A stretch of 64,000 bases of DNA from a virus. Taxonomy: Duplodnaviria > Heunggongvirae > Uroviricota > Caudoviricetes. Location of the stretch: positions 1 through 64,000 of IMG/VR virus record IMGVR_UViG_3300021963_000087; one strand, given 5' to 3'. The notes below the pieces were generated by a model. The model saw only the letters and a program-made list of their open reading frames with translations, was not told the DNA's origin and did no database searches. Position 1 is the stretch's first letter; every line of letters starts with the position of its first letter. Of the stretch, positions 10,019 through 50,385 are shown one piece after another. Made by a program: the position numbers and the translations under genes.

Positions 10019-10343
10019 ATTACAAGTTGATGGCATGCACAACTTTCCTAAAGCAGCAGAGTTGTTTCCAGAAGTAGCTTTTTTAGCAGAAAGACATAGA
10101 CATATATTTCACATCGAATTGAAAAAAGAAGTATTTCACGATGATAGAGATGTTGAGTTTATAATGTTTAAAAAAGACGTTACTGACTTTTTGAAGCAAA
10201 TGTACTATAAGCCTGAAACTCGCACACATGAGTTTGGTCCCATGAGCTGTGAAATGATAGCTAGGCAATTATTAAACCAATTCCACTGTATATCAGTGAC
10301 TGTCTGGGAGGACTTAGAAAATGGAGCAATCGTTGAAGCATAA
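9996..10343 (+). CDS. hypothetical protein
   Basis: ORF in array. Confidence 0.35.
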   Translation: MRTSVIVRLQVDGMHNFPKAAELFPEVAFLAERHRHIFHIELKKEVFHDDRDVEFIMFKKDVTDFLKQMYYKPETRTHEFGPMSCEMIARQLLNQFHCISVTVWEDLENGAIVEA

Positions 10344-31244: not shown

Positions 31245-31291
31245 CTGGGTGCCTTTTTGTATCTTTTAACTATTTATAGTAAAGGTATAAA

Positions 31292-32237: not shown

Positions 32238-32309
32238 CGCAAGATAGAGCAGAGGTAGCTCACTAGGCTCATAACCTAGGGGTCGAAGGTTCGAATCCTT
32301 CTCTTGCAA
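32238..32309 (+). tRNA. tRNA-Met (CAT), initiator-like
   Basis: C1-A72 mismatch, D-arm gagc-agaggta-gctc identical to E. coli tRNA-fMet, anticodon loop ctCATaa, T-loop ttcgaat, 3' GCAAC. Confidence 0.75.
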
Positions 32310-32316
32310 CAAATAT

Positions 32317-32448
32317 GCCAGAGTGGCGGAATAAACAATGCATTGCTATACACGCGTTAAAGCACTAATGCATTGAGACGTGCCCTAATCCGGAGTGGTG
32401 CAGTGACCGAAAAGGACTGCGTGAAGGTAACCAACCCTTCCTCTGGCA
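32317..32448 (+). ncRNA. tRNA-like structured RNA (132 nt; paired termini, tRNA-Leu-like 5' end, no canonical cloverleaf)
   Basis: 5' gccagag pairs with 3' ctctggc, followed by a-cc. An internal 10-bp hairpin is built from the palindrome caatgcattg, and a second hairpin is gcagt-(11 nt)-actgc. Confidence 0.35.
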
Positions 32449-32462
32449 CCTTAATATAACGA

Positions 32463-32547
32463 AGCCTTGGTGTTGGAACTGGTAGACAAGTCAGACTTAA
32501 AATCTGGTTCGCTGAAAGCGAGTGCGGGTTCGATTCCCGCCTGAGGC
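32463..32547 (+). tRNA. tRNA-Leu (TAA)
   Basis: Class II tRNA. D-arm ttggaactggtagacaa, anticodon loop ctTAAaa, long variable arm, T-arm gcggg-ttcgatt-cccgc. Confidence 0.8.
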
Positions 32548-32571
32548 ACGGGCAGTATTATGTGTATTACT

Positions 32572-32656
32572 TGGAAAGATGGCAGAGTGGTTGAATGCAC
32601 CGGTCTTGAAAACCGGCAACTGTAAAAGGTTCTGGGGTTCGAATCCCTGTCTTTCC
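32572..32656 (+). tRNA. tRNA-Ser (TGA)
   Basis: Acceptor ggaaaga/tctttcc, anticodon stem ccggt/accgg with loop ctTGAaa, long variable arm, T-loop ttcgaat. Confidence 0.8.
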
Positions 32657-32767
32657 GCAAGATGTCTATCCCCCTTCCCAACGAACAGGGCGCTTAGGGT
32701 AGGCCTTTTACCAAAGTGGATAAAACGTGTAGTAACCACAGGGATGCTAGCTCCCACTACACTCTTC

Positions 32768-32838
32768 TGCCCTTTAGTATAACGGTAGTACGGCAGTTTT
32801 TGGTACTGCTTGTTGAGGTTCGAATCCTTGAGGGGCAA
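32768..32838 (+). tRNA. tRNA-Gln (TTG)
   Basis: U1-A72 as in E. coli tRNA-Gln, U8 A9, anticodon stem gcagt/actgc with loop ttTTGgt, T-arm tgagg-ttcgaat-ccttg. Confidence 0.7.
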
Positions 32839-32851
32839 CAAAATAAAAGTT

Positions 32852-35165: not shown

Positions 35166-36596
35166 ATGAAAGAAGGTTACATTCCACAGGCAGATAGAAA
35201 GAAGATTCTATTACTCTGCGATGATATTAGATTTACATCTGGTATCTCAACAATGGCTAAAGAGATTGTCATTGGTACATCACATCGTTTTAATTGGGTA
35301 AACTTAGGAGCAGCTATCACTCATCCTGATCAAGGTAAGAGATTTGATGTTTGCCAAGATACAAACCAAATAGCAGGTATTACCGATTCATCGGTATTCA
35401 TTATACCTACCTCAGGTTATGGTAATCCAGACTTGCTACGTCAAGTAATTGAAATGGAGAAGCCTGATGCATTAATGTTCTTTACCGATCCGAGATATTG
35501 GATTTGGTTATTCCAAATGGAGAACGAGATTAGAAAGAAGATCCCAATGATTTATTTAAACATTTGGGATGACTTACCAGCACCTTTATACAATGAACCA
35601 TACTACGAGTCTTGTGACACATTGTTAGCTATTTCAAAGCAAACTGCTAACATTAATAGATTGGTACTTGGAGATAAGGCTAAGGATAAGATTATTAAGT
35701 ATGTACCTCATGGTATTAACGAGAAAGTATTCTTCCCATTACCTAAAGACACACCTGAGATACAAGCAATGAGAAAGTTATACTTCGGAGATGATCAACC
35801 TGAGTTTGTTTTATTCTACAATGCTAGAAACATTAGACGTAAGTGTACTTCAGATCTTATCTTAGCGTATGCTCAGTTCTGTGATAAGATTGGTAAAGAG
35901 AAAGCTAAAAAATGTGCTTTGCTTTTACATACTCAAAGAGCAGATGAGAATGGTACTGACTTACCAGCTGTTATAGATTTATTCTGTGACCCTGAGTATC
36001 AAAGAGTTGTATTCTCTGAGTACAGATATTCTCCACATCAAATGAATCATTTATACAACTGTGCAGATGCTGTTACTTTAGTTTCTTCTAATGAAGGCTG
36101 GGGCTTATCTTTGACAGAAGGTATGATGACTGGTAAGATGATTATTGGAAACGTAACAGGAGGTATGCAGGATCAAATGAGATTTGAAGATGAGAATGGT
36201 AAGTGGATTGATTTTGATGAGAAGTTCTGTAGCAATCACTTTGGTACTTACAAAAAGCATGGAGAGTGGGCAGTACCTGTGTATCCTTCTAATTTGTCAA
36301 TTGTTGGTTCTATTCCTACTCCATACATTTTTGATGACAGAGCAGACTTTAGAGATATTGCAAAAGCAATTGAGGAAGTTTATAACTTAGGTCCTGAAGA
36401 AAGAGAAAGAAGAGGTTTGAAAGGAAGAGAGTGGGCTACTTCAGAAGAGTCAATGCAAAGTGCTAGTTCAATGTCTAAGAATATTATTGATGGTGTTGAA
36501 GAAACATTTGCTAAGTGGAAGCCGAGAAAGAAACATCAACTTATCAAAGTGAAGAAGCTACCACGTAAAAAGGCAGCACACTCGTTGGTATATTAA
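35166..36596 (+). CDS. glycosyltransferase, GT4-like (GT-B fold)
   Basis: SSNEGWGLSLTEGMMTGKMIIG (E-x7-E motif). Confidence 0.65.
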   Translation: MKEGYIPQADRKKILLLCDDIRFTSGISTMAKEIVIGTSHRFNWVNLGAAITHPDQGKRFDVCQDTNQIAGITDSSVFIIPTSGYGNPDLLRQVIEMEKPDALMFFTDPRYWIWLFQMENEIRKKIPMIYLNIWDDLPAPLYNEPYYESCDTLLAISKQTANINRLVLGDKAKDKIIKYVPHGINEKVFFPLPKDTPEIQAMRKLYFGDDQPEFVLFYNARNIRRKCTSDLILAYAQFCDKIGKEKAKKCALLLHTQRADENGTDLPAVIDLFCDPEYQRVVFSEYRYSPHQMNHLYNCADAVTLVSSNEGWGLSLTEGMMTGKMIIGNVTGGMQDQMRFEDENGKWIDFDEKFCSNHFGTYKKHGEWAVPVYPSNLSIVGSIPTPYIFDDRADFRDIAKAIEEVYNLGPEERERRGLKGREWATSEESMQSASSMSKNIIDGVEETFAKWKPRKKHQLIKVKKLPRKKAAHSLVY

Positions 36597-36620
36597 TAAA
36601 TAAAGTTTATATTTTAAAAC

Positions 36621-37895
36621 ATGAAACAATACTGCGTTATATCAGCACCTCCAGACACATATAGTGGTTATGGTGCAAGATCAAGAGATTTTATAAAAGC
36701 TATCTATGAGCTTAAAAAGGATGAGTGGGATATTCAAATCATACCGCAGAGATGGGGTAACACTTCTTGGGGTTTCTTAGAAGATAATAAAGAGGAGTGG
36801 GGTTGGATGATTCCATTATTGTTGAAGAGTCCTATGACAAGACAACCTGATGTATGGTTTCAAATCACAGTACCTAGTGAGTTCCAACCAGTGGGTAAGA
36901 TTAATATAGGAGTTACAGCAGGTATTGAAACTACAGTATGTGATTCTAGTTGGATCGAAGGTTGTAATAGAATGAATGCAATATTTGTATCATCCGTACA
37001 TGCTAGAACAGTATTACAAACTACAGCCTTTACTAAGAAGGATGATCCTAACTTTCAAATCAAATTAACTAAGCCTGTTGAAGTTCTATTCGAAGGAGTA
37101 GATCTAAACAAGTACTTCCATATTCCAGATGATGAGTTACCTGAAACAGATCTAGTATTAGACTTAGATGAGATTGAAGAAGACTTTTGTTTTCTATATG
37201 TAGGACACTGGTTGCAAGGAGACTTAGGAGAGGATAGAAAGAACACAGGTAAGCTAGTTCAGGTTTTCTTAGAAACCTTTAAAGGAAAGAAAAAGAAACC
37301 TGCTTTAATTATGAAGACTTCTAGTGCAACATCTTGTATTATGGATAGAGATGAAATGCTTAGAAAGATTAACATTCTTAAAGAAGCTGTGGGTGGTGAT
37401 ATACCAAACATTTACTTACTACATGGTGATATGGATGATGAAGATATGAACTGTCTCTATAACCATCCTAAAGTAAAAGCCTTTGTATCATTTACAAAAG
37501 GTGAAGGATATGGAAGACCTTTAGCAGAGTTCTGCTTATCCAAGAAGCCAATGATAACTACAGCATGGTCAGGTCATATAGATTTCTTAAGTAAAGAGTT
37601 CAGTGTACTATTACCAGGAAAGCTTACAGAGACTCATCCATCAGCTCATTCTAATACTTTAATACTTCCAGGTGCATCTTGGTTTACAGTAGACTACGGA
37701 GCAGCAACAAAAGCATTGGAAGATGTTTATAGTAACTATAAGAAGTATGAAGAGATGGGTAAGCGTCAAGGACATAAGATCAAGACTGAGTTTAGCTACG
37801 ACAACATGGTATTATTCTTATCAGCTTATTTAGCTAAGTATGTTCCTAAGCAAGTAGAATTAAAATTACCTCAACTAAAGAAAATATCTATATAA
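36621..37895 (+). CDS. glycosyltransferase (GT-B fold, GT4-like)
   Basis: SFTKGEGYGRPLAEFCLSKKPMITT. Confidence 0.5.
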   Translation: MKQYCVISAPPDTYSGYGARSRDFIKAIYELKKDEWDIQIIPQRWGNTSWGFLEDNKEEWGWMIPLLLKSPMTRQPDVWFQITVPSEFQPVGKINIGVTAGIETTVCDSSWIEGCNRMNAIFVSSVHARTVLQTTAFTKKDDPNFQIKLTKPVEVLFEGVDLNKYFHIPDDELPETDLVLDLDEIEEDFCFLYVGHWLQGDLGEDRKNTGKLVQVFLETFKGKKKKPALIMKTSSATSCIMDRDEMLRKINILKEAVGGDIPNIYLLHGDMDDEDMNCLYNHPKVKAFVSFTKGEGYGRPLAEFCLSKKPMITTAWSGHIDFLSKEFSVLLPGKLTETHPSAHSNTLILPGASWFTVDYGAATKALEDVYSNYKKYEEMGKRQGHKIKTEFSYDNMVLFLSAYLAKYVPKQVELKLPQLKKISI

Positions 37896-38320
37896 TGACT
37901 AGTCAAGAATTTGTAATATGGTTAAAAGGATTCACTGAAGGTGTGCATGATTTTAACGTTACACCTAAGCAGTGGGATATAATGAAAGATAGATTAGCAG
38001 AAGTATCAGACGATAAGTTTGCAGAAACACCAGGTATGTTTCAAGATCACACTGTACAATCTTATCCTCCGTATTGGAGTCCACATAGTCCCTTTTACAC
38101 AACAAGTGGTACTAGTGGCTCAATAGATACAAGGAGTATAGTTTCTCAATGGACAACAACTCCAAACAACATTACCTACACAGTAACCTCAGGCTCTTCC
38201 TATATTGGAGCAGGCAGCACTTATACTCATACTTATCCTAACGGAACTACTGTGAGCTATACAGCAGGTGGAACAGATGATAATTGGAATATAAAAAATA
38301 AAGACTTACTACATGATTAA
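37895..38320 (+). CDS. hypothetical protein (Thr/Ser/Tyr-rich C-terminus)
   Basis: ORF in array. Confidence 0.35.
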   Translation: MTSQEFVIWLKGFTEGVHDFNVTPKQWDIMKDRLAEVSDDKFAETPGMFQDHTVQSYPPYWSPHSPFYTTSGTSGSIDTRSIVSQWTTTPNNITYTVTSGSSYIGAGSTYTHTYPNGTTVSYTAGGTDDNWNIKNKDLLHD

Positions 38321-38750
38321 AGATGAAATGATAATATGCCCTAAGTGTGGCTGTGATGGATGTTATAAGACTCCAATCAACGAAACCTTATCAAACTACT
38401 TCTGTTGGGGATGTGGTTATCAAACTAATGACTTAATGAAAGAAGGAGAGTTTGACTTTGAAAAGTTTGAAGAAGTATTGCCTGAACTATATAAAGATGT
38501 TAGATATACTGATGCTGAGAATAGAGTTTGGTATCCTGCTGTAGTTAATATAGAAGATAAAGGAACTGTGTTCTTGAATGGGAAGAGTGTTGACGAAGTT
38601 CAATGGGCAGGTATTAAAGTAATTAAATTAACAGACGAAGAAAAAGAACAACCTAAGTTTAAAGGTAAAGAGTATAAGTCAGATGCTAAATCTCTAAAAG
38701 AGTTTGGTAATGACTTTATTGAAGCCTGTGACTATATTGGAGTATTTTAA
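38313..38750 (+). CDS. zinc-ribbon protein
   Basis: CPKCGCDGC...CWGCG. Confidence 0.4.
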   Translation: MIKDEMIICPKCGCDGCYKTPINETLSNYFCWGCGYQTNDLMKEGEFDFEKFEEVLPELYKDVRYTDAENRVWYPAVVNIEDKGTVFLNGKSVDEVQWAGIKVIKLTDEEKEQPKFKGKEYKSDAKSLKEFGNDFIEACDYIGVF

Positions 38751-38753
38751 ACT

Positions 38754-39602
38754 ATGAATGCATTAGTAACAGGTGGTTGTGGCTTTATAGGTTATGCCTT
38801 ATCTAAAGAATTACTTCTGAGAGGTTGTAGTGTTGATGTTATAGATAACTTGTTTATAGGTAATGAAGCTAAGTTAGCAGAAGGAATAAATTTTTTAGGT
38901 GGTGATGTTAGAGCAATGGATAACATACCAAATAAACCATATGATTACATATTTCATTTAGCAGCATTAAGTAGAATACAACCATCGTTCAAAAACCCAG
39001 AGCTAACATTCAATCACAATGTAGATGGTACAAAGCAAGTTACAAAGTATGCATACCAAACCAAGTCTAAATTAATATACGCAGGCTCATCATCTCGACA
39101 TCACAATCCAGAAATATCACCTTACGCTGTGAGTAAGCATATGGGAGAAGAGTGGATAAAGATGTATAAAAATGTGTATGGATTAAATGCAGAGATAGTT
39201 AGATTCTATAATGTATACGGACCAGGTGAGTTAGTAGATTCTCATATGGCAGCTGTTATTGGTAAATGGAGAGCTCAAGCTAAAAAGAATTATCCAATTA
39301 CAATTATAGGTGACGGAAAGCAAAGAAGAGATTTTACTCACATAGACGACATTGTAGATGGTTTGATAAGAGTTGCCGAAAGTGATAAAGGACATGAGGA
39401 TGCATGGGAATTGGGTACAGGTAAAAACTATTCTATAAATGAGGTAGCCGATATGTTTAGAAAAAGGCTTGGTTGTGTGAAAGTTTATATGACTGACCAG
39501 AAAGGAAATTATAGAGAGACGTTGAGAATTAACAGTGATGCTGTTAATATATTAGGATGGCAACCAAAAGATAGATTAGAAGATTATATAAAAAGCTTAT
39601 GA
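38754..39602 (+). CDS. NAD-dependent sugar epimerase/dehydratase (SDR family)
   Basis: VTGGCGFIGYAL Rossmann motif and Y-x3-K (YAVSK). Confidence 0.75.
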   Translation: MNALVTGGCGFIGYALSKELLLRGCSVDVIDNLFIGNEAKLAEGINFLGGDVRAMDNIPNKPYDYIFHLAALSRIQPSFKNPELTFNHNVDGTKQVTKYAYQTKSKLIYAGSSSRHHNPEISPYAVSKHMGEEWIKMYKNVYGLNAEIVRFYNVYGPGELVDSHMAAVIGKWRAQAKKNYPITIIGDGKQRRDFTHIDDIVDGLIRVAESDKGHEDAWELGTGKNYSINEVADMFRKRLGCVKVYMTDQKGNYRETLRINSDAVNILGWQPKDRLEDYIKSL

Positions 39603-40216
39603 AAATTAGTTACGCAATTCCTGTCTGTAATGAAGACGAAGAGTTAGATAGATTACTAACTCAACTTATAGAACATAAACGTCACCAAGACGAAATCGTA
39701 GTACAGTGTGATGAAGGTAATACAACTTCTAAAGTTTATGCAGTATTAGATAAACACGATAAGTATATTAAAGTTGTACAATTTCCTCTCAAAGGGGACT
39801 TTGCATCTTTTAAGAACAACTTAAAGAAGAACTGTACTGGAGAATGGATCTTTCAAATAGATGCTGATGAGTATCTCGATGTAAGATTTTTAAAGCAAGT
39901 ACATGAAATTCTACAACAAAACCCTACAGTAGATCTATTCTTAGTTCCTAGAATCAATAAAGTAGAAGGTCTTACTGATGAACATGTTAAGAGATGGGGA
40001 TGGAGAGTAGATGATCATGGCTATGTAAACTTCCCAGACTACCAAACTAGAATACTACAAAACTCTCCTAAGATTAATTGGGTAAGCAAAGTACATGAAG
40101 TATTAACAGGACACAGCAACTACACAATGTTACCAGCTCAGGAAGAATATTGTTTAGTACATATTAAAAATATCGCACGTCAAGAAAGACAAAATAACTT
40201 TTATAATACATTATAA
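39599..40216 (+). CDS. glycosyltransferase family 2-like (small)
   Basis: SYAIPVCNEDEELDRLL and a DAD motif region. Confidence 0.45.
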   Translation: MKISYAIPVCNEDEELDRLLTQLIEHKRHQDEIVVQCDEGNTTSKVYAVLDKHDKYIKVVQFPLKGDFASFKNNLKKNCTGEWIFQIDADEYLDVRFLKQVHEILQQNPTVDLFLVPRINKVEGLTDEHVKRWGWRVDDHGYVNFPDYQTRILQNSPKINWVSKVHEVLTGHSNYTMLPAQEEYCLVHIKNIARQERQNNFYNTL

Positions 40217-41196
40217 TGAATAAGGTTGCATTAATAACAGGAATCAATGGACAAGATGGATCTTACTTAGCAGAATATTTGCTAGAGTTAGGATACCATG
40301 TTCACGGCATACTAAAACGTAATTCAGTAGCAGAGAATCAAACAGCTAGACTAGACAAAGTGTTTGGTCTTATTCACTTCCACTATGCTGATATGACAGA
40401 TCTTTCATCCTTGTACAGAGTAATAAACAAAGTACAGCCTGATGAGATCTATAACTTAGCTGCACAATCACACGTACGTATTTCTTTCGATCAACCAATC
40501 TATACAGCCAACACTACAGGGTTAGGAGTACTTAACTTATTAGAAGCTGTAAGAGAAATCAATCCTAGGATCAAAATATATCAAGCATCTTCTTCAGAGA
40601 TGTTTGGTAACTCTGTTGATCCAGATGGCTTCCAAAGAGAAACTACCCCAATGCATCCAGTATCTCCTTACGGATGTGCAAAAGTGTTTGGGTATAACAT
40701 TGCTAGGAACTATAGAAACTCCTATGGAATGTTTATCTCAAATGGTATCTTATTCAATCATGAATCAATTAGAAGAGGTACAAACTTCGTAACTAATAAA
40801 GTTGCTAAGGAAGTAGCTAAGATTAAACATGGTTACTCTGAGGAATTGTTGTTAGGTAACTTAGATGCTTCAAGAGATTGGGGTCATGCTAAAGACTTTG
40901 TTAAAGCAATGCACTTAATTCTACAACTAGATCAGCCAGATGACTTTGTTTGTGCTACAGGAATATCTCATACGGTAAGAGATTTATGTGATTATGCTTT
41001 CACCGAACTAGATTTAGATTATAAAAAGTATGTACATTTACACGAAAAATTTTTAAGACCAGAAGAACTCAACTTTCTAAAAGGAGATCCATCTAAGCTA
41101 ATGGCTATGACAGGATGGAAGCCTGAGTATACTTTTGAAAGTATGATAACAGAAATGGTTGAGTATTGGGATCGTTTATATAGAAAAGTATATTAA
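40216..41196 (+). CDS. gmd: GDP-mannose 4,6-dehydratase
   Basis: KVALITGINGQDGSYLAEYLLELGYHVHGI...YNLAAQSHV...YQASSSEMFG, near-colinear with E. coli Gmd. Confidence 0.93.
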   Translation: MNKVALITGINGQDGSYLAEYLLELGYHVHGILKRNSVAENQTARLDKVFGLIHFHYADMTDLSSLYRVINKVQPDEIYNLAAQSHVRISFDQPIYTANTTGLGVLNLLEAVREINPRIKIYQASSSEMFGNSVDPDGFQRETTPMHPVSPYGCAKVFGYNIARNYRNSYGMFISNGILFNHESIRRGTNFVTNKVAKEVAKIKHGYSEELLLGNLDASRDWGHAKDFVKAMHLILQLDQPDDFVCATGISHTVRDLCDYAFTELDLDYKKYVHLHEKFLRPEELNFLKGDPSKLMAMTGWKPEYTFESMITEMVEYWDRLYRKVY

Positions 41197-41197
41197 T

Positions 41198-42094
41198 ATG
41201 AAAGTAGTAGTAACAGGCGGAACAGGATTAGTAGGAACTTACCTACAAGAATACCTCGATGGAGTTTATGTAAACTCTTCACACTACGACCTAACTTTTG
41301 AAGGTGATGTAGCAGATCTATACAATGATCATAAGCCGGATGTAGTTATTCACTTAGCTGCTAAGGTAGGAGGTATTGTGGATAACATCGAACATCCCTT
41401 TGAGTACTATGAACAAAACCTCTTAATGAATACTTACATGGTTAAGTATGCAAGAGAGTTCAAAGTTGAGAAATTCATAGGTGTATTATCTTCTTGCATC
41501 TTCCCAGACGTAGTTGATCACTATCCTATGGTAGAAGAAGATATGCATAAGGATTTACCCAATGCAAATAACTTTGGATATGGATATGCTAAAAGAGTTA
41601 TGGGTTGCCATATTGACATAGCTAGAAAGCAAGGTTTAAACTTCTCCTACATTACTCCTTCCAACTTGTATGGTGAATATGAACATGGAGATGTAAGCAG
41701 AAAGCATTTTGTTGGAGCATTACTTGAGAAGATCCATACTGCAAAGGTAAATGGAGATGATCATATAACTTTATTTGGTGATGGAACTCCTCTAAGACAG
41801 TTTACATTTGCAAGAGATGTAGCAGAGATTCTTAAAAGGATTGTTAAATGTGATATAAAAGAGAACTTAAACATAAGTACTCCCAGCAACATGACCATAG
41901 ATTTTATGGCTAGAGAAGCTTTAGAAGCTTTAGGTATGCAAGATATTAGAATTCTTTACGATATGTCTAAACCTAATGGTCAATATAGAAAAGATATAGA
42001 TACAACTAAATTTAAAAACATATTTCCTAACTACGAATTTACTTCGTATGTTGAGGGTATAAAACAAACCTACAATACACTATATGGAAAGTAA
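41198..42094 (+). CDS. GDP-L-fucose synthase-like (Fcl/ColC family 3,5-epimerase-4-reductase)
   Basis: Start set at MKVVVTGGTGLVG after the gmd stop. HLAAKVGGIV, SSCIFPD and YGYAK match Fcl. Confidence 0.8.
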   Translation: MKVVVTGGTGLVGTYLQEYLDGVYVNSSHYDLTFEGDVADLYNDHKPDVVIHLAAKVGGIVDNIEHPFEYYEQNLLMNTYMVKYAREFKVEKFIGVLSSCIFPDVVDHYPMVEEDMHKDLPNANNFGYGYAKRVMGCHIDIARKQGLNFSYITPSNLYGEYEHGDVSRKHFVGALLEKIHTAKVNGDDHITLFGDGTPLRQFTFARDVAEILKRIVKCDIKENLNISTPSNMTIDFMAREALEALGMQDIRILYDMSKPNGQYRKDIDTTKFKNIFPNYEFTSYVEGIKQTYNTLYGK

Positions 42095-43424
42095 GAAGCA
42101 AGCCATCTTAGACTTGGTGGCAGAGTACATTAAAGAAAAGAAAGCAAACAAGACATGGACAGCAGGTAAAGATTGGGTTCAATACTCAGGTCCTTGGTTT
42201 AATCAAGATGAATTTACAGCAGGCGTCAGTACTTTGCTCGACGAGTGGTTTATCTTAGGACAGAAAGGTAGAGACTTTGAACATAAGTTCGCTCCATTGA
42301 TCGGAAAGAAAGATGGTATTGTAGTTAACTCAGGTAGTTCTGCAAACCTATTAATGGTTTCTTTATTGAGAACTAAGAGAGGTGGGAACCTACCAATAGG
42401 TTCTAAGTTCATTACTCCAGTAGTTTGTTTCCCAACTACAATCAATCCTTTGATTCAGAATGGATTCAAGCCAGTTTTTGTAGATGTAACATTACCTAAC
42501 TTGAATTTAGACTTGGATCAAGTAGAAGCTGTTTTAGAAGCTGATACAGCGAAGGAGATTAAAGGATTAATATTTGCTCACGTATTAGGTAATCCTCCTG
42601 ATATGGACAGAATAATGGCTATTGTGAAGAAGTATGACTTGATCTTCTTGGAAGATACTTGTGATGCTTTAGGTTCAACTTGGGATGGTAAGCCATTAGG
42701 ATCTTTCGGAGACATTTCAACTTGTTCATTCTTCCCAGCTCACCACATGACAATGGGTGAAGGTGGATTCGTAGCAGTTAATTCAGCTAAGAAGAGAATG
42801 GCTTTAGCTTCATTGAGAGATTGGGGTCGTGCTTGTTATTGTAATTCTACTAAGCCAGGTAACGTAACAGAAGGTACAGCTTGTGGATGTAGATTTGGAG
42901 ATTGGTTTAAAGGTCAACCAGATATTATCTTTGATCACAGATATGTGTTTGAAGAGATTGGTTATAACTTAAAGCCAACAGAAATGCAAGCAGCTATGGG
43001 ATTAGCTCAATTAGATAAGTTAGATGAGATGCATGCTAGAAGAAAGCACAACTTCAAAAGATTGTACGACATCTTTAGTCAGTATCCTGATTTCTTCTAT
43101 TTACCTGAAATGCATGAGAAAGCTGATGCATCTTGGTTTGGTTACTTAGTAACATTGAAAGATGGTTTACATTTCACTAAGAGTCAAATGGTAGATGCTA
43201 TGGAAGAAGCTAAGATCCAAACTAGATCTTACTTCACAGGTAATGCTTTATTCCACCCAGCTTATGAAGAGTTAGCTGCAGAGTATGAAAACCCAAGAGA
43301 GCAATTCCCTATAGCAACTAAGACTACTTTAGATACATTCTTCCTAGGAGTATACCCTGGAATCACAGATGCACAGTTGGATTATATTGAGCAAGTAGTT
43401 CATGACTTTTTAAAGAATATCTAA
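42084..43424 (+). CDS. DegT/ColD-like PLP enzyme; probable GDP-4-keto-6-deoxy-D-mannose 3-dehydratase
   Basis: DegT fold. Active-site motif SFFPAHHMTMGEGG has His where aminotransferases have Lys, which is the ColD hallmark. Confidence 0.6.
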   Translation: MESKKQAILDLVAEYIKEKKANKTWTAGKDWVQYSGPWFNQDEFTAGVSTLLDEWFILGQKGRDFEHKFAPLIGKKDGIVVNSGSSANLLMVSLLRTKRGGNLPIGSKFITPVVCFPTTINPLIQNGFKPVFVDVTLPNLNLDLDQVEAVLEADTAKEIKGLIFAHVLGNPPDMDRIMAIVKKYDLIFLEDTCDALGSTWDGKPLGSFGDISTCSFFPAHHMTMGEGGFVAVNSAKKRMALASLRDWGRACYCNSTKPGNVTEGTACGCRFGDWFKGQPDIIFDHRYVFEEIGYNLKPTEMQAAMGLAQLDKLDEMHARRKHNFKRLYDIFSQYPDFFYLPEMHEKADASWFGYLVTLKDGLHFTKSQMVDAMEEAKIQTRSYFTGNALFHPAYEELAAEYENPREQFPIATKTTLDTFFLGVYPGITDAQLDYIEQVVHDFLKNI

Positions 43425-44260
43425 TGCAAACTTATATAACATACGGAAGAATAACAGAAGCAGCTGATTTAGGATCTCAAGTACAGCAGTATGCATCTTT
43501 GTATGCTATTGCTAAGTACACTGGAAAACAAATAGTATTTCCTGAATCATGTTTACATAAAGGTTGGGGAATGAAGTTTAGTAAACTATTAGACATTCCT
43601 GTTAGGATAGAACCAGATGAGTTCTTTAAAGACTTTCAGTGGGTACGTCCTGAGGATGGCTTACTACCTGACTCCAAAGTATTTCAATTAGAAGGTGATA
43701 AGAGTTACGATATTGTAAACCTTATGCATACACATCACTATTGGAATCCTGAGGATAAAGAGGATGTCTATGGATGGAAATGGAATCCAGAATACTTTCA
43801 GCAAGCATTAGAGAAGTATCAAGCATTAGCAGAACCTGGAAAAGAACTTGTATCTATTCACGTACGTCGTGGAGATTACTTAGCTCATGATCACTTCTGC
43901 AAACTAGACAATAGATACTATGAAGCAGCAATACAGAAGTTCCTTCCAGAGAAAGAAAAGTACCGCTTTATAGTATTCTCAAATGACATTCAGTGGTGTA
44001 AAGATAATTTGATTGAAGGAGAGAATGTAACTTTCTTAGATCAAGGAGTAGATTACGTTGATATGATGTTAATGAGTTTATGTCATCACAATATTATAGC
44101 AAATAGTTCATTTAGTTGGTGGGCTGCTTTTAGAAATAGGAACCCCAACAAGATAGTAATTTGTCCAAATAACTACATAAGAGAGACTAGCTCTTTTAAA
44201 TTCCTTAACGGAGCTTATTGTTTACCTGAGTGGGAAAGTATAGACAACGATCCATCATAA
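43424..44260 (+). CDS. GT11-family alpha-1,2-fucosyltransferase-like glycosyltransferase
   Basis: HVRRGDY motif. Confidence 0.7.
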   Translation: MQTYITYGRITEAADLGSQVQQYASLYAIAKYTGKQIVFPESCLHKGWGMKFSKLLDIPVRIEPDEFFKDFQWVRPEDGLLPDSKVFQLEGDKSYDIVNLMHTHHYWNPEDKEDVYGWKWNPEYFQQALEKYQALAEPGKELVSIHVRRGDYLAHDHFCKLDNRYYEAAIQKFLPEKEKYRFIVFSNDIQWCKDNLIEGENVTFLDQGVDYVDMMLMSLCHHNIIANSSFSWWAAFRNRNPNKIVICPNNYIRETSSFKFLNGAYCLPEWESIDNDPS

Positions 44261-44261
44261 T

Positions 44262-45251
44262 ATGAGAATAGCATTTTTAACTGAAATGGGTTTTACAGGA
44301 AAGGTTCCTGCTGATCATCCCAATATGCGAACAGAGTTTGCTTGGATGCATGCACTAGATGCAGACCATCATTCTATTACAAGTCATAAATGGGTAGAAG
44401 GCTACGATCACGTATTCATTATCTTTCCTAAAGGTCAGATCAACTATAGTACAATAGGAGTTAAGCTAGGTACCACACCTAATCCATACTCTCAATTACT
44501 TGCTAGTGACTGGTTAGATAGGATAAAAGCAAACAATAAGAAAGTATATTATGTACAGGAAGGTCCACATTGGATGTATACTGAACTAGAAGTAGCAGAT
44601 CAAATTCGCTTCTACAACATGCTTACAACTGTGGATGGCATATTCGCACATAATAACAACGACATGGTTTATTATGCAGGATTAGTGCCTAATACACCAA
44701 TCCATTTAATGCAGACCTTAATGATTGAAGATCTGATTAAAGATGTGGAATGGAAACCAGAAGAAAAAACTATTGTAGGAGGAAACTTTGCTAGGTGGTA
44801 TGGAGGCTTTGAAAGTTTTATCATAGCTCAAGAATTTGAAACTCCCATCTGGGGACAAACATCTCATGCTATGAGAGAACACGAAGGTTCCTTTGTGAAT
44901 CATTTACCTAGAGTACAATGGGTTGATTGGATGAAACAACTAAGTACTTTTAAGTATGCAGTTCATTTAATGCCTACAGTAGCTGCAGGTACCTTTGCTC
45001 TAAACTGTGCTTACTTTGGAATACCTTGTATAGGTAATCAAAGAGTTGATACACAAATTAATTGTCATTTACATTTATCAGTTGAAGTAGGTGATCTTAT
45101 GACAGCTAGAGAATATGCAAAGAGATTAAAGCACGACGAAGAATTTTATCAAAAATGTAGTACAGAAGCTAAAGAAGCTTACCATACTTATTTTGGAGTA
45201 GATAAGTGGAAAGAGAAAATGTTTGTAAAACTAGAAGCACTTGGAAAATAA
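44262..45251 (+). CDS. hypothetical protein (possible glycosyltransferase)
   Basis: Lies within the glycan locus; no clear motif. Confidence 0.4.
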   Translation: MRIAFLTEMGFTGKVPADHPNMRTEFAWMHALDADHHSITSHKWVEGYDHVFIIFPKGQINYSTIGVKLGTTPNPYSQLLASDWLDRIKANNKKVYYVQEGPHWMYTELEVADQIRFYNMLTTVDGIFAHNNNDMVYYAGLVPNTPIHLMQTLMIEDLIKDVEWKPEEKTIVGGNFARWYGGFESFIIAQEFETPIWGQTSHAMREHEGSFVNHLPRVQWVDWMKQLSTFKYAVHLMPTVAAGTFALNCAYFGIPCIGNQRVDTQINCHLHLSVEVGDLMTAREYAKRLKHDEEFYQKCSTEAKEAYHTYFGVDKWKEKMFVKLEALGK

Positions 45252-46857
45252 ATTTTTAATAATAGTTCCATCTTTTAATAATGAAGAGTGGGTAGAAACT
45301 AATATAGCAAGTATACTAAATCAAACCTATACAAACTATAGAGTTGTTTATATAGATGATGCTTCAACTGACCAGACTCATAGCAAAGTCTTCGATATTG
45401 TAAATTCTCTACCAAACTGGGTAGTGTGGAAAAATAAAACCAACAAAGGAGCTGCTTTTAATTACATAGATTCTCTTAAATGGCTTTATCCTAAAGATAA
45501 TGAAATTATAGTTCACTTGGATGGAGATGATTGGTTTTACGATGAGAATGTTTTAGATAAATTAAACTACTACTATAGAAGAAATGATTGCTGGATGACT
45601 TATGGTCAGTTTGTTTGTTATGACGGAACTGGCTATCCCAGACCATCCTACCCTCAAGGAACAGCTTACTCAGACTACGTACACAAGTATAAGTTATACC
45701 GAAGAGATGATTGGAGAGCTAGCCATTTAAGAACTTATAGATATTTTTTATGGAAGGCTATAGATGTAGAAGATTTAAAATCACAGAAGGATGGAGAATA
45801 CTTTTGGCATGCAAGTGATCTAGCTTGGGCTTACCCAGCTTTAGAGATATGTCCTAAAGAAAAGATTGGTGTAGTAGATTTCTTTACTCACGTTTACAAT
45901 GCAACTCCTAAGAATCAAACAAGAACCAAAGAAAGAGAGTCAAGTAACAACTCTGAATTTGAACATGAAATAAGAAATAAGAAAGTGTATAGAGAAGGAT
46001 TAAACCAAGGTAAGTTACTTCAAGTTAATGTATATGGAGATTATTTAGAAAGACATACACATCCAACTTTGTTTAGCTATTGCTACAATAGAAGTTATGG
46101 AGAGTATGATATCTTCTATGTACAGGATGAGAGGATAATTGAGTTCATCTACGGAGTTATAGAAGCTCCTAAAGGAGTTAAGATTGTGGCTAGAGTTTGT
46201 GAGAATAGAAACTTTTTCAATCAACAAACAGTTGTGGATGCTGTATTAGCTTTTCCAAATAGATTCGATTTGATCTTAACTTGGGATGAGGAAATATTAA
46301 AGTTACCCAATGCAGTTTTCTGTCCACTAACAGAGACAACTCAATTCAATACCTTACCTAATGAATTACCTGAAGACGCTTTTCAGATCTACGATAAGAG
46401 TAAATTAGTTTCTGCTATATCTTCTACGAAGTCCATGGTACCTGGACATACAACTAGACTACAGTTTATAGATTCTATTAAAGAAAAAGTAGAGTTATTT
46501 GGTAGAGGTATTAAAGAGATACCTTCCAAGCTAGATGGATTGAAAGACTACATGTTTAGTGTAGCTATTGAGAATGCAACGGATACAAATTACTTTACAG
46601 AAAAACTTACAGATTGTTTGGTAACAGGAACAATTCCAGTATATTATGGATGCCCTAATGTTGGAGACTTCTTTGATATGAATGGTATTATTACCTTCAG
46701 TAGCATAGAAGAGCTTCACCAAATATTAGATTCACTAACACCAGAATTATATCAATCTAAGTTGGAGAGTGTAAGAAAGAACTTTGAGTTAGCTTTTAAC
46801 TACCCAACAGATAACAATAGTATGTACAAATTATATTATAAGCAATATGAGCACTAA
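45241..46857 (+). CDS. bifunctional glycosyltransferase: N-terminal GT2, C-terminal GT10 (alpha-1,3-fucosyltransferase)-like
   Basis: N-terminus IIVPSFNNEEWV...YIDDASTD (GT2). C-terminus FSVAIENA...NYFTEKL resembles the FucT ENS...YxTEK motifs. Confidence 0.6.
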   Translation: MENKFLIIVPSFNNEEWVETNIASILNQTYTNYRVVYIDDASTDQTHSKVFDIVNSLPNWVVWKNKTNKGAAFNYIDSLKWLYPKDNEIIVHLDGDDWFYDENVLDKLNYYYRRNDCWMTYGQFVCYDGTGYPRPSYPQGTAYSDYVHKYKLYRRDDWRASHLRTYRYFLWKAIDVEDLKSQKDGEYFWHASDLAWAYPALEICPKEKIGVVDFFTHVYNATPKNQTRTKERESSNNSEFEHEIRNKKVYREGLNQGKLLQVNVYGDYLERHTHPTLFSYCYNRSYGEYDIFYVQDERIIEFIYGVIEAPKGVKIVARVCENRNFFNQQTVVDAVLAFPNRFDLILTWDEEILKLPNAVFCPLTETTQFNTLPNELPEDAFQIYDKSKLVSAISSTKSMVPGHTTRLQFIDSIKEKVELFGRGIKEIPSKLDGLKDYMFSVAIENATDTNYFTEKLTDCLVTGTIPVYYGCPNVGDFFDMNGIITFSSIEELHQILDSLTPELYQSKLESVRKNFELAFNYPTDNNSMYKLYYKQYEH

Positions 46858-47812
46858 GGTAGTTTACATAACAGGTTGTTTAGGTTTCATAGGTTCCTAT
46901 GTTACTAGAGCTTGTTTACACAAAGGATGGTATGTAAAAGGGGTAGATAAGATAACATACGCATCCAATAAGAACTTGTTAGAGGATTTCAATTCCTATG
47001 AGAAGTTTTCTTTTATTAAGTCAGACATAAATGATTTAAAGTTTTTGTATGAATGTGATTATGTAATTAACACAGCAGCAGAAACTCACGTAGGTAACTC
47101 AATAGCTAACAGTGATGAGTTTGTACATTCCAATATTGATGGAGTACATAACCTATTAGAGTTAATAAAGAACTACAGACAAGAGTCTTCCAAGAAACCA
47201 ATCTTCCTACACTTCAGTACAGATGAAGTATACGGAGATATTAACGAAGGAGCTCATACAGAAACAGATTTACTCAAGCCTTCTAATCCATATTCAGCTA
47301 CTAAAGCAGCAGCGGATATGTTAGTACTTGCTTGGGCTAGAACTTATAACCTACCCTATGTAATAGTTAGACCTACTAACAATTATGGTATTGGTCAGTA
47401 TGTAGAGAAGTTAATTCCAAAAGCTTGTAAGTACTTAAGTTTGGGAAAAAGGATTCCTTTACACAATAATGGTACCCCTATTAGAAACTGGTTACATGCT
47501 GATGACACAGCTAGAGCTGTTGTTCAGATTATTGAGTCAGGAGTAGAGAATGAGATCTATAACATAGCAGGTGGATTTGAGCAATCAAACTACGACACTG
47601 TTAAAAAGGTAATTGAAACGTATAGAGGGATTGAAATTCTAGACTTTAATATGAAGAACTATCTTGACTTAACATATTCTAGAGCAGGTCAAGATGTTAG
47701 ATATGCTTTAGATGATTCTAAGTTAAGAGGATTAGGTTGGGAACCAAAAGTAGTATTTGACGAACAATTGGAAGAAATTATAAATTATTACAAACATAAA
47801 TTTATCTGGTAA
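46847..47812 (+). CDS. NDP-sugar 4,6-dehydratase (RmlB-like)
   Basis: ITGCLGFIGS, GVDKITYASNKNLL and HFSTDEVYGD match RmlB. Confidence 0.85.
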   Translation: MSTKVVYITGCLGFIGSYVTRACLHKGWYVKGVDKITYASNKNLLEDFNSYEKFSFIKSDINDLKFLYECDYVINTAAETHVGNSIANSDEFVHSNIDGVHNLLELIKNYRQESSKKPIFLHFSTDEVYGDINEGAHTETDLLKPSNPYSATKAAADMLVLAWARTYNLPYVIVRPTNNYGIGQYVEKLIPKACKYLSLGKRIPLHNNGTPIRNWLHADDTARAVVQIIESGVENEIYNIAGGFEQSNYDTVKKVIETYRGIEILDFNMKNYLDLTYSRAGQDVRYALDDSKLRGLGWEPKVVFDEQLEEIINYYKHKFIW

Positions 47813-48507
47813 TGGGATTATTTAGAATACAACATTGTGATTTTGAAGAGAAGTTCACTTCTAAGGATTTTGATACAGCTCATACCAATGAGTGGGAAGA
47901 TGCTGGAAGACTTCAAGAAGAAGCTTGGCAGAAGAGATATGAGTATGAAGCTAATATTGTTAGTGTAGTTATTCAAGAAAATCCTCACATTAAAAACGTA
48001 TTAGAGATTGGTAGTGGTCCAGGAGTATTATCTCAAAAGATATTAGAGATGCACCCAGACTTAAACTATCATTTAGTAGATAAGCCATTTGCTAAGAAGT
48101 ACTTTGATGAGAATAAGTTTAAAGGAACTTTCTTTGTTAAGGATCTTTCTAGTAGTTTTGATACCCACGAACTCTTACCTAAGTATGATTTAGTAATAGC
48201 TAATGACTTTATTGAGCACGTATTTAATCCTCATATTATTGTTAGCACTATACACAGATTAACAAATCCAGATTCAGTATTCTTTATTAGTAATCCTAAT
48301 TGGAGAATGGCTCATCAATATGTCTACAGAGGTTTGTTTGACTTTGATAATTTTGTATATTTCTTATACACACACGCATTTCAATTAGAAGGCTTTTATG
48401 GATCACAATTAAAGACTCCTGCCTATCCAAGAATTAGTAGCGAGACTTTACTACCAGATGAGAACTTAACGGATTGGAATCACTATATGATATTTAAACA
48501 CAGATAA
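47812..48507 (+). CDS. class I SAM-dependent methyltransferase
   Basis: VLEIGSGPGVLS motif I. Confidence 0.6.
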   Translation: MGLFRIQHCDFEEKFTSKDFDTAHTNEWEDAGRLQEEAWQKRYEYEANIVSVVIQENPHIKNVLEIGSGPGVLSQKILEMHPDLNYHLVDKPFAKKYFDENKFKGTFFVKDLSSSFDTHELLPKYDLVIANDFIEHVFNPHIIVSTIHRLTNPDSVFFISNPNWRMAHQYVYRGLFDFDNFVYFLYTHAFQLEGFYGSQLKTPAYPRISSETLLPDENLTDWNHYMIFKHR

Positions 48508-49130
48508 TGAAAGAATTAAGAAAACGACTAGTCGAAATAGCTTATAAGAATAAGCTAGGACACTTGGGAAGTTATTTCTCAAGCTTAGAAATTATAGATG
48601 AAATCTATTCCAGAATGGAAAAAGATGACATCTTCATTCTATCTTCAGGACATGCTGCATTAGCTTTGTACGTATGCTTAGAAAAGTATAAAGGAGTAAA
48701 TGCTGATATGCTATTTGAAAAGCATGGTGGACATCCTCACAGAGATGAGGAGAACTTTATACATTGCTCTACAGGTTCATTAGGTTTAGGTATATGTGTA
48801 GCTTTAGGTAGAGCTGTAGCTAATCCTAAGAGGGAAGTTTACGTACTAATTAGTGATGGTGAGTGTGCAGAAGGAAGTATATGGGAAGCTCTCAAAACTA
48901 TTTACGAGGAAGGTATTAGTAACATAACAGTTTATGTTAATGTGAATGGATACGCAGCTTATAAAGAAGTTGAGAAACAATACTTAGTAGATAGATTAGA
49001 ATCATTCCTACCTTCTATCAACATCAGATACACAAGCGTAGAACAGTTTCCTTTCTTAAAAGGATTGAATGCTCACTACCACGTAATGAATGAAGAAAAT
49101 TATCAAGAAGCTTTAAATATATTATCATGA
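48507..49130 (+). CDS. transketolase N-terminal (ThDP-binding) subunit
   Basis: GHLGSYFSSLEI...SSGHAALALY. Confidence 0.75.
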   Translation: MKELRKRLVEIAYKNKLGHLGSYFSSLEIIDEIYSRMEKDDIFILSSGHAALALYVCLEKYKGVNADMLFEKHGGHPHRDEENFIHCSTGSLGLGICVALGRAVANPKREVYVLISDGECAEGSIWEALKTIYEEGISNITVYVNVNGYAAYKEVEKQYLVDRLESFLPSINIRYTSVEQFPFLKGLNAHYHVMNEENYQEALNILS

Positions 49131-49603
49131 GAAGAGACTTTGCGGAATTACTTTTCCAAGAGATGGCTGTTAACGAAGACATCTTTCTTGTCACAGGAGA
49201 CCTAGGATACGGTTTGTGGGATAAGATTAGAGACACCTACCCAGATAGATTCTACAATGTAGGATCTTCTGAGATGGCTATGATGGGAATGGGTATAGGA
49301 TTAGCTATGGAAGGAAAGATTCCATATGTATATTCTATTACACCTTTTGCTATCTATAGACCTTTCGAGATGATTCGTAACTATTTGGATCATGAAAAGA
49401 TTCCAGTAAACATTATTGGTGGGGGTAGAAATAAAGACTACGGCTACTTAGGCTTTTCACATTGGTCAGAAGATGATGGTGAAATTATGTTAGCATTCGA
49501 TGATGTTGTATGCCATTGGCCAGACAGTGAAGATGATTTAAAAAAAGCATTTGAGTACAGCTTAATAAAAGAAAAAGCAACTTACATAAACTTAAAGCGA
49601 TGA
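49127..49603 (+). CDS. transketolase C-terminal (pyrimidine-binding) subunit
   Basis: Translationally coupled to the N-terminal subunit; GDLGYGLWD...GMGIGLAMEG. Confidence 0.65.
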   Translation: MRRDFAELLFQEMAVNEDIFLVTGDLGYGLWDKIRDTYPDRFYNVGSSEMAMMGMGIGLAMEGKIPYVYSITPFAIYRPFEMIRNYLDHEKIPVNIIGGGRNKDYGYLGFSHWSEDDGEIMLAFDDVVCHWPDSEDDLKKAFEYSLIKEKATYINLKR

Positions 49604-50385
49604 GAATATTAATCACAGGAGCTAACGGATACATAGGTAAAACTTTACACAATGCTCTAAGAGATATACACTACGTAACAGCTATTACTAGAAAAGAAGT
49701 AGAGTTGGCTGATGCTGCTGCTGTAGATAAGTTTTTTAAAAATTCACATTTTTTTGATGTGGTTATACACTGTGCTACAGCAGGTGCTGTTAGTCCGAGG
49801 AGTGAAGATTGGAACATAATGGATAACAATCTTAAAATGTATTATAATTTACTACAGAACAAGAGACGTTACGATAGGCTAATTCATTTTGGATCAGGTG
49901 CTGAAACTTATTTGCCAAGTACACCTTATGGTTATAGTAAGAAAGTTATTGCTAAGTCTATCTTAAACCAAGATAACTTCTACAATCTTAAGATCTTTGG
50001 AGTGTTTGATGAGAATGAATTAGATACTAGATTTATAAAAGCTAACATCCTACGTTATATTAAGAAAGAGCCAATACAAATTCACGAAAATAAGTATATG
50101 GACTTCTTCTACATGCAAGATTTAATCTCAGTAGTAAAGTATTACATTGGAGAAAAGGAACCACCTAAAGAGTTTGACTGTGTTTATGAAGAAGGGTCTC
50201 CTACTCTTACACAGTTATCTACTATGATAAACGACTTAGACGGTCATAAGGTTAAAATATTTGTTGGAAATCCAGACGGTGATTCATACACATCTAAGTA
50301 TCGTAGTCAATTACCCTATGGGTTTATAGGATTAGAGCAAGGAATCAAAAACGTATACAACAAACTTAAGAATGAAACAAATTAG
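49600..50385 (+). CDS. NAD(P)-dependent sugar reductase/epimerase (SDR)
   Basis: ILITGANGYIGKTL Rossmann motif and YGYSK. Confidence 0.6.
   Translation: MRILITGANGYIGKTLHNALRDIHYVTAITRKEVELADAAAVDKFFKNSHFFDVVIHCATAGAVSPRSEDWNIMDNNLKMYYNLLQNKRRYDRLIHFGSGAETYLPSTPYGYSKKVIAKSILNQDNFYNLKIFGVFDENELDTRFIKANILRYIKKEPIQIHENKYMDFFYMQDLISVVKYYIGEKEPPKEFDCVYEEGSPTLTQLSTMINDLDGHKVKIFVGNPDGDSYTSKYRSQLPYGFIGLEQGIKNVYNKLKNETN

Follow-up and report, generated by a model that had tools for sequence, protein, structure and literature searches.

Three kinds of nucleotide-sugar 3-dehydratase are known, E1, ColD and SpnQ, and all three carry a histidine in place of the lysine that otherwise binds pyridoxal phosphate (PLP) (PMC8987622). 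E1, the CDP-6-deoxy-L-threo-D-glycero-4-hexulose 3-dehydrase of Yersinia pseudotuberculosis and Salmonella (RfbH/DdhC/AscC; PDB 3bcx), acts on a CDP-gluco substrate, and SpnQ, the dTDP-4-keto-2,6-dideoxy-D-glucose 3-dehydrase of the spinosyn forosamine pathway, on a dTDP-gluco substrate; in both, four cysteines hold a [2Fe-2S] cluster and an external reductase is required, whereas ColD (Escherichia coli O55; PDB 2gms, 3gr9) has no Fe-S cluster and regenerates its pyridoxamine phosphate (PMP) with glutamate (PMC8987622). SpnQ is reduced by general ferredoxin or flavodoxin reductases and transaminates in vitro when no reductase is supplied, an activity that E1 and ColD do not show (PMC8987622). 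CDP-4-keto-3,6-dideoxyglucose is the starting sugar of the YerE/YerF (yersiniose A) and ErwE/ErwF (erwiniose) steps, in which YerE and ErwE attach a branch from keto-acid donors (PMC9306805; PMC12247030). Here we examine a virus-encoded relative of these 3-dehydratases in a 64,000-nucleotide stretch of a Caudoviricetes genome (IMG/VR record IMGVR_UViG_3300021963_000087, positions 1 to 64,000; hereafter the window). A preliminary description of positions 40216-43424 had reported three open reading frames (ORFs), for a GDP-mannose 4,6-dehydratase (GMD), an Fcl/ColC-like synthase and a DegT-family protein, and had read them as a GDP-colitose-type pathway with a ColD-like dehydratase. All three ORFs are indeed there on the plus strand, each matches its family far beyond chance, and the GMD and Fcl-like genes do lie directly upstream of the DegT ORF. 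However, the DegT protein is by alignment of the E1/RfbH type, not of the ColD type, and on balance we slightly favour a pathway to a yersiniose-like branched 3,6-dideoxyhexose, with the GMD, Fcl-like and GT11 and GT10 glycosyltransferase genes forming a separate GDP-fucose module.

The assignment of the DegT protein rests on overall similarity, on the active-site residue and on cluster cysteines. It scored 446.3 bits against the NCBIfam RfbH equivalog NF011936, above the cutoff of 423, and 339 bits against Yersinia E1 over residues 2-442, compared with 171 bits against ColD over residues 41-390 only. The HMMER alignment set its motif SFFPAHHMTMGEGG against 'sfypahhitmgegg' of E1 and 'sfypakhitmgegg' of the E1 H220K mutant (PDB 3bb8), so that the first histidine, residue 220, falls on His220 of Yersinia E1 and opposite the mutant lysine. 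The replacement of the PLP lysine by histidine had been noticed correctly, and a search of 10 aligned relatives for an alternative active-site lysine found none at that position, His220 and His221 being invariant. Together, the DegT fold and the histidine in place of the Schiff-base lysine predict a PMP-dependent nucleoside diphosphate (NDP)-4-keto-6-deoxyhexose 3-dehydratase and no aminotransferase, as had been proposed. The histidine is not the ColD signature it was taken for, because E1 and SpnQ have it too (PMC8987622).

What separates the types is the Fe-S cluster. Cys193, Cys251, Cys253 and Cys267 of the window protein line up with Cys193, Cys251, Cys253 and Cys261 of E1, whereas three of the four are missing from ColD. 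Their spacing is C-X57-C-X1-C-X13-C, compared with X7 in the last gap of E1, the difference being a six-residue insertion between the third and fourth cysteines. Ten viral relatives, some with as little as 52% identity, all keep His220 and the four cysteines unchanged. At 446 amino acids (aa), the protein also exceeds the approximately 390 aa of ColD. With ColD it shares the fold, the histidine and, as predicted from these, the first half-reaction, and the window has GMD, Fcl/ColC-like and GT11 genes alongside, as colitose clusters do; the match to ColD is nevertheless the weaker one, and ColD differs in its cysteines and its glutamate-based PMP recycling. Since it has the E1-type [2Fe-2S] cysteines, the window protein should, unlike ColD, need an electron donor.

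Given the E1-type assignment, we compared approximately 180 related viral loci (numbered L001 onwards) for constant partners of the E1-like gene. An E1-anchored set comprised 24 loci (19 of them from IMG/VR; E1-like identity 52-94%) and an RmlB-like-anchored set 80 viral loci, 44 of which had at least 8 kb on both sides; as the latter is biased to RmlB by construction, the E1-anchored set and a GMD-anchored set are the fairer comparisons. An RmlB-like dehydratase gene (45-82% identity) was found in 19 of the 24 E1-anchored loci, while a close GMD gene was found in only 11. Two more of the 24 (L023, L024) encode a canonical RmlB (366 bits) and RmlA (420 bits), both above NCBIfam cutoffs, and the three that have neither form of RmlB are one contig that ends 1.6 kb downstream, L020 and L021. 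The GMD gene is missing from L006 and L013, which keep the Fcl-like, E1-like and GT11 genes. In L014-L018, compact blocks join genes for a thiamine diphosphate (ThDP) enzyme, a short-chain dehydrogenase/reductase (SDR), the E1-like protein and the RmlB-like protein, with no adjacent GMD, Fcl or GT11 gene, and the same module occurs in L022. L106 and L117 have five contiguous genes, for the E1-like protein, the RmlB-like protein, the N-terminal and C-terminal halves of a split ThDP enzyme (TKn, TKc) and an SDR, with no GMD, Fcl or GT11 gene nearby. Across all fully flanked E1-like viral loci, a ThDP enzyme lay within 8 kb in 26 of 42. RmlB-like dehydratase, ThDP enzyme and reductase genes are therefore the constant partners of the E1-like gene, and GMD is not constant.

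The reciprocal comparisons gave the same pattern. An E1-type gene was present in 57 of the 80 RmlB-like-anchored loci, and a His-type 3-dehydratase in 42 of the 44 fully flanked ones (36 of the E1 type and 6 of an Fe-S-less type in the same slot), whereas only 5 of 80 GMD-anchored viral loci had an E1-like gene. No adequately flanked viral locus combined E1-like and GMD genes without an RmlB-like gene. The Fe-S-less protein, a DegT relative of about 385 aa encoded directly upstream of the RmlB-like gene in 10 of the 80 loci, keeps the histidine in its motif TSFYASHVITAGG and has none of the four cluster cysteines; it scored 213 bits against E1 and 150 bits against ColD and, judged on these features, may be an undescribed 3-dehydratase lineage.

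In the window, the glycan cluster spans about 35166-51661 and holds glycosyltransferase genes (GT1, GT2, GT11 and a GT2+GT10 fusion) along with two sugar-nucleotide gene sets: GMD and Fcl-like genes upstream of the E1-type gene, and RmlB-like, methyltransferase, paired ThDP and SDR genes from 3.4 kb downstream of it (Table 1). Genes for a 3-dehydrase (starting at 42084), a ThDP enzyme (48507/49127) and a reductase (49600) thus occur together. From the families, residues and co-occurrence described above we infer the following route, including its substrate, nucleotide, electron donor, branch and acceptor. The RmlB-like enzyme would convert NDP-D-glucose of the host to NDP-4-keto-6-deoxy-D-glucose. 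Its score was 306.8 bits against the dTDP-type model TIGR01181 (under the cutoff of 365) versus 77 bits against the CDP-type model TIGR02622. The window cluster has no RfbG gene and no gene for RfbF or another nucleotidyltransferase; as no nucleotidyltransferase is encoded, host dTDP- or UDP-glucose is the probable substrate. The E1-type enzyme would then form a PMP-sugar Schiff base, with His220 as general base, and expel the 3-hydroxyl through a PMP-glucoseen intermediate, its cluster being reduced by a ferredoxin/flavodoxin reductase system of the host, as for SpnQ, to give NDP-4-keto-3,6-dideoxy-D-glucose. At C-4, the split ThDP enzyme would add a short acyl or hydroxyalkyl branch to the ketone; reduction by the SDR, and possibly methylation by the methyltransferase, would then give a yersiniose-like branched dideoxy sugar. 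GMD, the Fcl-like protein, GT11 and the GT2+GT10 protein would make up a self-sufficient GDP-L-fucose module that merely flanks the E1-type gene. Finally, the soluble glycosyltransferases of the cluster would build the glycan in the cytoplasm, with virion proteins as the most plausible acceptor. A lipid-linked O-antigen-type route (Wzx, Wzy, priming transferase) was considered for the cluster and rejected: none of its 20 proteins has a hydrophobic segment (no 19-residue window above 1.6 on the Kyte-Doolittle scale), so the glycan is probably made in the cytoplasm on a soluble acceptor.

Table 1. Features of the glycan cluster in the window, with the Fe-S-less relatives found in other viral loci (positions in nucleotides).
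Feature	Position	Strand	Length (aa)	Evidence and remarks
GT1 glycosyltransferase	35166-36596	+		Pfam
GT-like protein	36621-37895	+		Pfam; followed by two small proteins
SDR	38754-39602	+		Pfam; absent from L001
GT2 glycosyltransferase	39599-40216	+		Pfam
GDP-mannose 4,6-dehydratase (GMD)	40216-41196	+	326	Pfam GDP_Man_Dehyd 392.8 bits, E 2e-117
GDP-L-fucose synthase-like (Fcl-like) epimerase/reductase	41198-42094	+	298	158.6 bits to human GDP-L-fucose synthase
E1/RfbH-type PMP-dependent NDP-4-keto-6-deoxyhexose 3-dehydrase (predicted)	42084-43424	+	446	Pfam DegT_DnrJ_EryC1 260.6 bits, E 3e-77
Putative [2Fe-2S] ligand Cys193	42660-42662	+		
Predicted catalytic His220	42741-42743	+		Alignment to E1
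Putative [2Fe-2S] ligand Cys251	42834-42836	+		
Putative [2Fe-2S] ligand Cys253	42840-42842	+		
Putative [2Fe-2S] ligand Cys267	42882-42884	+		
GT11-family glycosyltransferase	43424-44260	+	278	Pfam Glyco_transf_11 96.9 bits; alpha-1,2-fucosyl/colitosyl-transferase family
GT2 domain fused to GT10 (fucosyltransferase C-terminal)	45241-46857	+	538	Pfam Glycos_transf_2 63.4 bits, Glyco_transf_10 39.8 bits
RmlB-like NDP-glucose 4,6-dehydratase	46847-47812	+	321	STDEVYG and YSATK motifs; 255 bits to 2hun
S-adenosylmethionine-dependent methyltransferase	47812-48507	+	231	Pfam Methyltransf_23, _12, _31; conserved in L008, L109, L010; possible sugar methylation
ThDP enzyme, N-terminal (PP-domain) half, TKn	48507-49130	+	207	Pfam DXP_synthase_N, Transketolase_N, TPP_enzyme_C; 52.5 bits to 6yak
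ThDP enzyme, C-terminal (Pyr-domain) half, TKc	49127-49603	+	158	Pfam Transket_pyr 51.1 bits; 50.2 bits to 6yaj
SDR	49600-50385	+	261	Pfam Epimerase 70 bits, RmlD_sub_bind; proposed YerF-like reductase or 4-ketoreductase
GT2-family glycosyltransferase closing the cassette	50372-51661	+	429	Pfam Glycos_transf_2 34.6 bits; conserved in L008, L011, L013
Fe-S-less His-type relative (other loci)	L171 6305-7465; L149 8865-9992; L113, L119, L124, L146, L154, L157, L158, L180			

The same combination of 3-dehydrase, ThDP enzyme and reductase is found in the yersiniose A and erwiniose systems (E1/E3, YerE/ErwE and YerF/ErwF), although these pathways have a CDP-glucose dehydratase where the window has an RmlB-type one. 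Compared with the E1 systems in general, the window protein is a full-length homologue with the same histidine and aligned cysteines, but it is phage-encoded, it has no RfbF, RfbG or E3 (RfbI/AscD) gene nearby, and an RmlB-like dehydratase is present instead. The ThDP slot varies among the viral relatives, being occupied either by a split transketolase-like pair or by a true YerE/acetolactate-synthase-like enzyme of 585-595 aa (L001, L006, L013 and L014). The window has a two-piece enzyme related to transketolase and DXS and not the YerE-like form with its TPP_enzyme N, M and C domains. Its halves, of 207 and 158 aa, are small beside the 309 and 341 aa of the solved split transketolase (6yak/6yaj); the transketolase C-terminal domain is apparently missing, and an SDG...N motif resembling a ThDP-binding motif is present. 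An SDR gene follows the ThDP gene in L106, L117, L171, L008 and L015-L018 as well.

The YerE-like genes of three relatives have unusual neighbours: DmpF/DmpG-like acetaldehyde dehydrogenase/4-hydroxy-2-oxovalerate aldolase genes in L001 (18492-21341), a ketopantoate hydroxymethyltransferase (PanB) gene in L014 (6447-9169) and a NeuB-cupin fusion in L013 (14034-17323). Enzymes of the DmpG/DmpF and PanB types form hydroxy-2-keto acids. Donors of that kind are preferred by ErwE (PMC12247030). These neighbours could be a source of unusual keto acids from which longer branches are added to the sugar.

Several points weigh against the branched-sugar pathway. The co-occurrence counts take in overlapping and related contigs and are not phylogenetically independent. 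Motif patterns run over all plus-strand ORFs of at least 50 aa in the window recovered no E3, ferredoxin or FNR partner for the E1-type enzyme, and the RmlB-like protein stays under its NCBIfam cutoff. The RmlB-like/ThDP/SDR trio occurs without any 3-dehydratase gene in L108 and L126; branching is therefore not strictly dependent on 3-deoxygenation. Lastly, gene adjacency in the window points elsewhere: the E1-like gene sits tightly between the Fcl-like and GT11 genes, overlapping them by 11 bp and 1 bp, and 3.4 kb from the RmlB-like gene. In its closest clade (at least 68% identity), an Fcl-like gene is always present and a GT11 gene directly follows in 12 of 13 cases, and in L162 and L191-L193 the E1-like gene adjoins GMD.

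This adjacency is what speaks for the GDP-colitose pathway of the preliminary description, in which GMD would make GDP-4-keto-6-deoxy-D-mannose, the E1-type enzyme would strip the 3-hydroxyl, the Fcl-like protein acting as ColC would yield GDP-L-colitose or a similar sugar, and GT11 would transfer it; the genes follow in just this order, with abutting or overlapping codons. The GT11 family fits, as WbgN and FUT2 both transfer L-colitose from GDP-L-colitose as well as L-fucose from GDP-L-fucose and refuse other nucleotides (PMC11987014), and cyanophage E1-type genes adjoin GT11-family genes too. The Fcl-like protein reached 155.9 bits against the NCBIfam Fcl model, far under the cutoff of 500, and could therefore be a diverged ColC-like enzyme. 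Catalytic residues were tried as a means of telling Fcl from ColC and set aside, because both need the identical Ser/Cys/Tyr/Lys/His set.

Even so, we consider the GDP-colitose pathway unlikely. Among characterised E1-type enzymes, none acts on a GDP-manno substrate, so that such a reaction would be unprecedented (PMC8987622), and the partner genes argue in the same direction: the viral loci tie the DegT gene to RmlB-like, ThDP and SDR genes instead, E1-like genes are rare among the GMD-anchored loci, and those of L006, L013-L018, L106 and L117 manage without an adjacent GMD. The comparative data give colitose no support of its own. Moreover, the E1-like gene is not needed to complete the GDP-fucose module, for which GMD, Fcl, GT11 and GT10 suffice. 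The window GMD scored 329 bits against Arabidopsis GMD (1n7g) and 395.8 bits against TIGR01472, slightly under the cutoff of 415. The Fcl-like gene has its start codon (ATG) at 41198, two bases past the GMD stop codon (TAA, 41194-41196), and not at the TTG at 41159; aligned with human GDP-L-fucose synthase, its product keeps the S-x-C, YxxxK and histidine residues, although its exact reaction is a prediction, and GT11 and GT10 complete the set.

Cellular homologues of the E1-like protein are also informative here. Those that are clearly cellular share at most 50% identity with it, and among 68 cellular E1-like loci, RfbF/RfbG genes were found in 41, RmlA/RmlB genes in 8 and a ThDP enzyme in 28, while GMD was the sole dehydratase nearby in only one. 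In a spirochaete locus (L067), the genes run GMD, Fcl, two others, E1-like, RfbF (438 bits), RfbG (501 bits), SDR and a split transketolase. GMD and Fcl genes beside an E1 gene therefore do not imply colitose, and fucose genes next to E1 are a recurrent mosaic. The closest nominally cellular matches (L026-L031, 54-73% identity) were tried as cellular context and set aside, being short contigs of metagenome-assembled genomes (MAGs), labelled Bacteroidetes, Thaumarchaeota, Maricaulis, Pirellula and Terrimicrobiaceae, with phage-like gene order. Since this order (TKn, TKc, glycosyltransferase, SDR, E1-like, RmlB-like) is that of the viral loci, mis-binning of phage contigs into MAGs is the probable explanation.

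Less probable again is an unbranched 3,6-dideoxyhexose of the abequose, paratose, tyvelose or ascarylose type, made by the E1-type, RmlB-like and SDR enzymes while the ThDP enzyme acts on another intermediate or sugar. Loci in which the two activities come apart are consistent with it, namely L108 and L126 with the trio described above and L020, L023 and L024 with E1-like and SDR genes and no ThDP enzyme, as is cyanophage S-H68, which has E1-type, RmlB-like, RmlC-like and SDR genes and again no ThDP enzyme; the window itself offers three extra SDRs (starting at 38754, 41198 and 49600). However, the association with a ThDP enzyme is frequent in both the viral and the cellular loci, the ThDP gene is directly contiguous in L106, L117 and L015-L018, and the E1 product is the only biochemically known acceptor of YerE-type branchers in surface-glycan pathways (PMC9306805; PMC12247030).

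The supply of electrons bears on whether the E1-type enzyme works as a dehydrase at all. Besides the motif search, no ferredoxin or FNR domain was found among the Pfam-scanned window proteins, and in L019, L020 and L023 the ORF that comes next after the E1-like gene (348, 222 and 372 aa), tried as an E3 candidate, had no Pfam match. SpnQ, with which the window enzyme was compared by description, is an E1-type [2Fe-2S] enzyme that operates without a dedicated E3, the mode proposed here; it differs in its 2-deoxygenated substrate and its actinomycete secondary-metabolite context. That the window protein has no dehydrase role in vivo for lack of an E3, and is a 4-aminotransferase (like SpnQ deprived of reductase) or inactive, is very improbable: E1 and ColD do not transaminate in this way and general host reductases are known to serve (PMC8987622), most cellular loci examined likewise have no recognisable E3 beside the E1-like gene, the search spanned 64 kb, whereas the whole genome is about 170-185 kb, and the strict conservation of His220 and the four cysteines in relatives with 52-94% identity argues for selection on dehydrase chemistry.

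The preliminary description had also held such a gene to be unusual for a virus, which it is not. Close homologues occur on hundreds of viral contigs, and virus-encoded E1-type genes are already known in GenBank: cultured T4-like cyanophages (Kyanoviridae: S-H68, S-B05, S-B43, RN05-S and RB11-B) encode a protein 40% identical to that of the window, with the histidine and four cysteines kept. The S-H68-type gene is annotated as 'CDP-4-dehydro-6-deoxy-D-glucose 3-dehydratase', a label that JGI also gives to close metagenomic homologues. These cyanophage genes adjoin genes for an RmlB-like dehydratase, SDRs and GT11-family transferases; they come from another phage family and differ from the window locus in having an RmlC-like epimerase and a small cytidylyltransferase, with no ThDP enzyme nearby. 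Literature searches for phage-encoded colitose, 3,6-dideoxyhexose or branched-sugar pathways found no experimental study. The newer aspects of the locus lie beyond 40216-43424, in the portable dehydratase/RmlB-like/ThDP/SDR module with its swappable components, and in how small the split ThDP enzyme is. Tentatively, we suggest that a portable module of four to five genes (3-dehydratase, RmlB-like dehydratase, ThDP carboligase and reductase) is widespread in aquatic phages, where it might make C-4-branched 3,6-dideoxyhexoses on a non-CDP nucleotide with interchangeable Fe-S or Fe-S-less dehydratases and YerE-like or split branching enzymes, the sugar being placed on virion proteins by soluble glycosyltransferases of the phage.

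All sizeable ORFs of the window lie on the plus strand, the GC content is about 35%, and a DnaB-like helicase, a class II ribonucleotide reductase and a family A DNA polymerase are encoded. The only close relative in culture, Flavobacterium phage vB_FspM_immuto (Immutovirus, 160 kb), has a polymerase (PolA) that shares 58% identity with it, and many metagenomic contigs, with sizes up to 170-187 kb, encode proteins 80-94% identical to the DegT protein; the window therefore belongs to a large uncultured phage whose host is probably a member of the Bacteroidota. Positions 40216-43424 gave no megablast match to cultured phage genomes, and the window is none of the deposited phages. The head of the cluster (35166-40216) is largely conserved, with a core of GT1, second glycosyltransferase, small zinc-ribbon-like protein and GT2 genes in L001-L012, and the same head is found in phage immuto (L025, NC_055915.1 49172-59988). 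After this shared head comes a hypervariable sugar-synthesis cassette, with WecE-type aminotransferases in immuto and dehydratase and ThDP genes in the window.

Outside the glycan cluster, the window has a full-length tmRNA (30860-31247; Rfam RF00023, 75.3 bits; tag peptide ANEYAVAA), after which come tRNA-Met, -Leu, -Ser and -Gln (32238-32839). A GroEL/Cpn60-type chaperonin is encoded at 19852-21516 (Pfam 212.7 bits) and recurs in L004, L010 and L201; between it and the tRNA region, a 703-aa ORF (22576-24687) has a weak cohesin-domain match (28.9 bits). The ORF at 10321-11433 joins an N-terminal AAA_18 kinase-like domain to a C-terminal GTP cyclohydrolase I domain (139.9 bits), which may reflect 7-deazaguanine or folate-type phage metabolism.

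For annotation, the locus suggests that the Fe-S cysteines be checked before a His-for-Lys DegT protein near GMD is named ColD, and that gene adjacency is a weak guide to pathways in mosaic phage glycan cassettes. The cassettes also present natural swaps, of Fe-S for Fe-S-less 3-dehydratases and of YerE-like enzymes for tiny split transketolase-like carboligases, that could interest groups in enzymology and biocatalysis working on ThDP enzymes that form tertiary alcohols. If the branched-sugar pathway is correct, phages of freshwater and marine Bacteroidota-type hosts would encode in full the tailoring of rare branched dideoxy sugars, which have formerly been known only from bacterial O-antigens and antibiotics. 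These phages would rely on nucleotide-glucose and reductases of the host, and would carry the sugar pathways in hypervariable glycan cassettes whose products probably decorate the virion.

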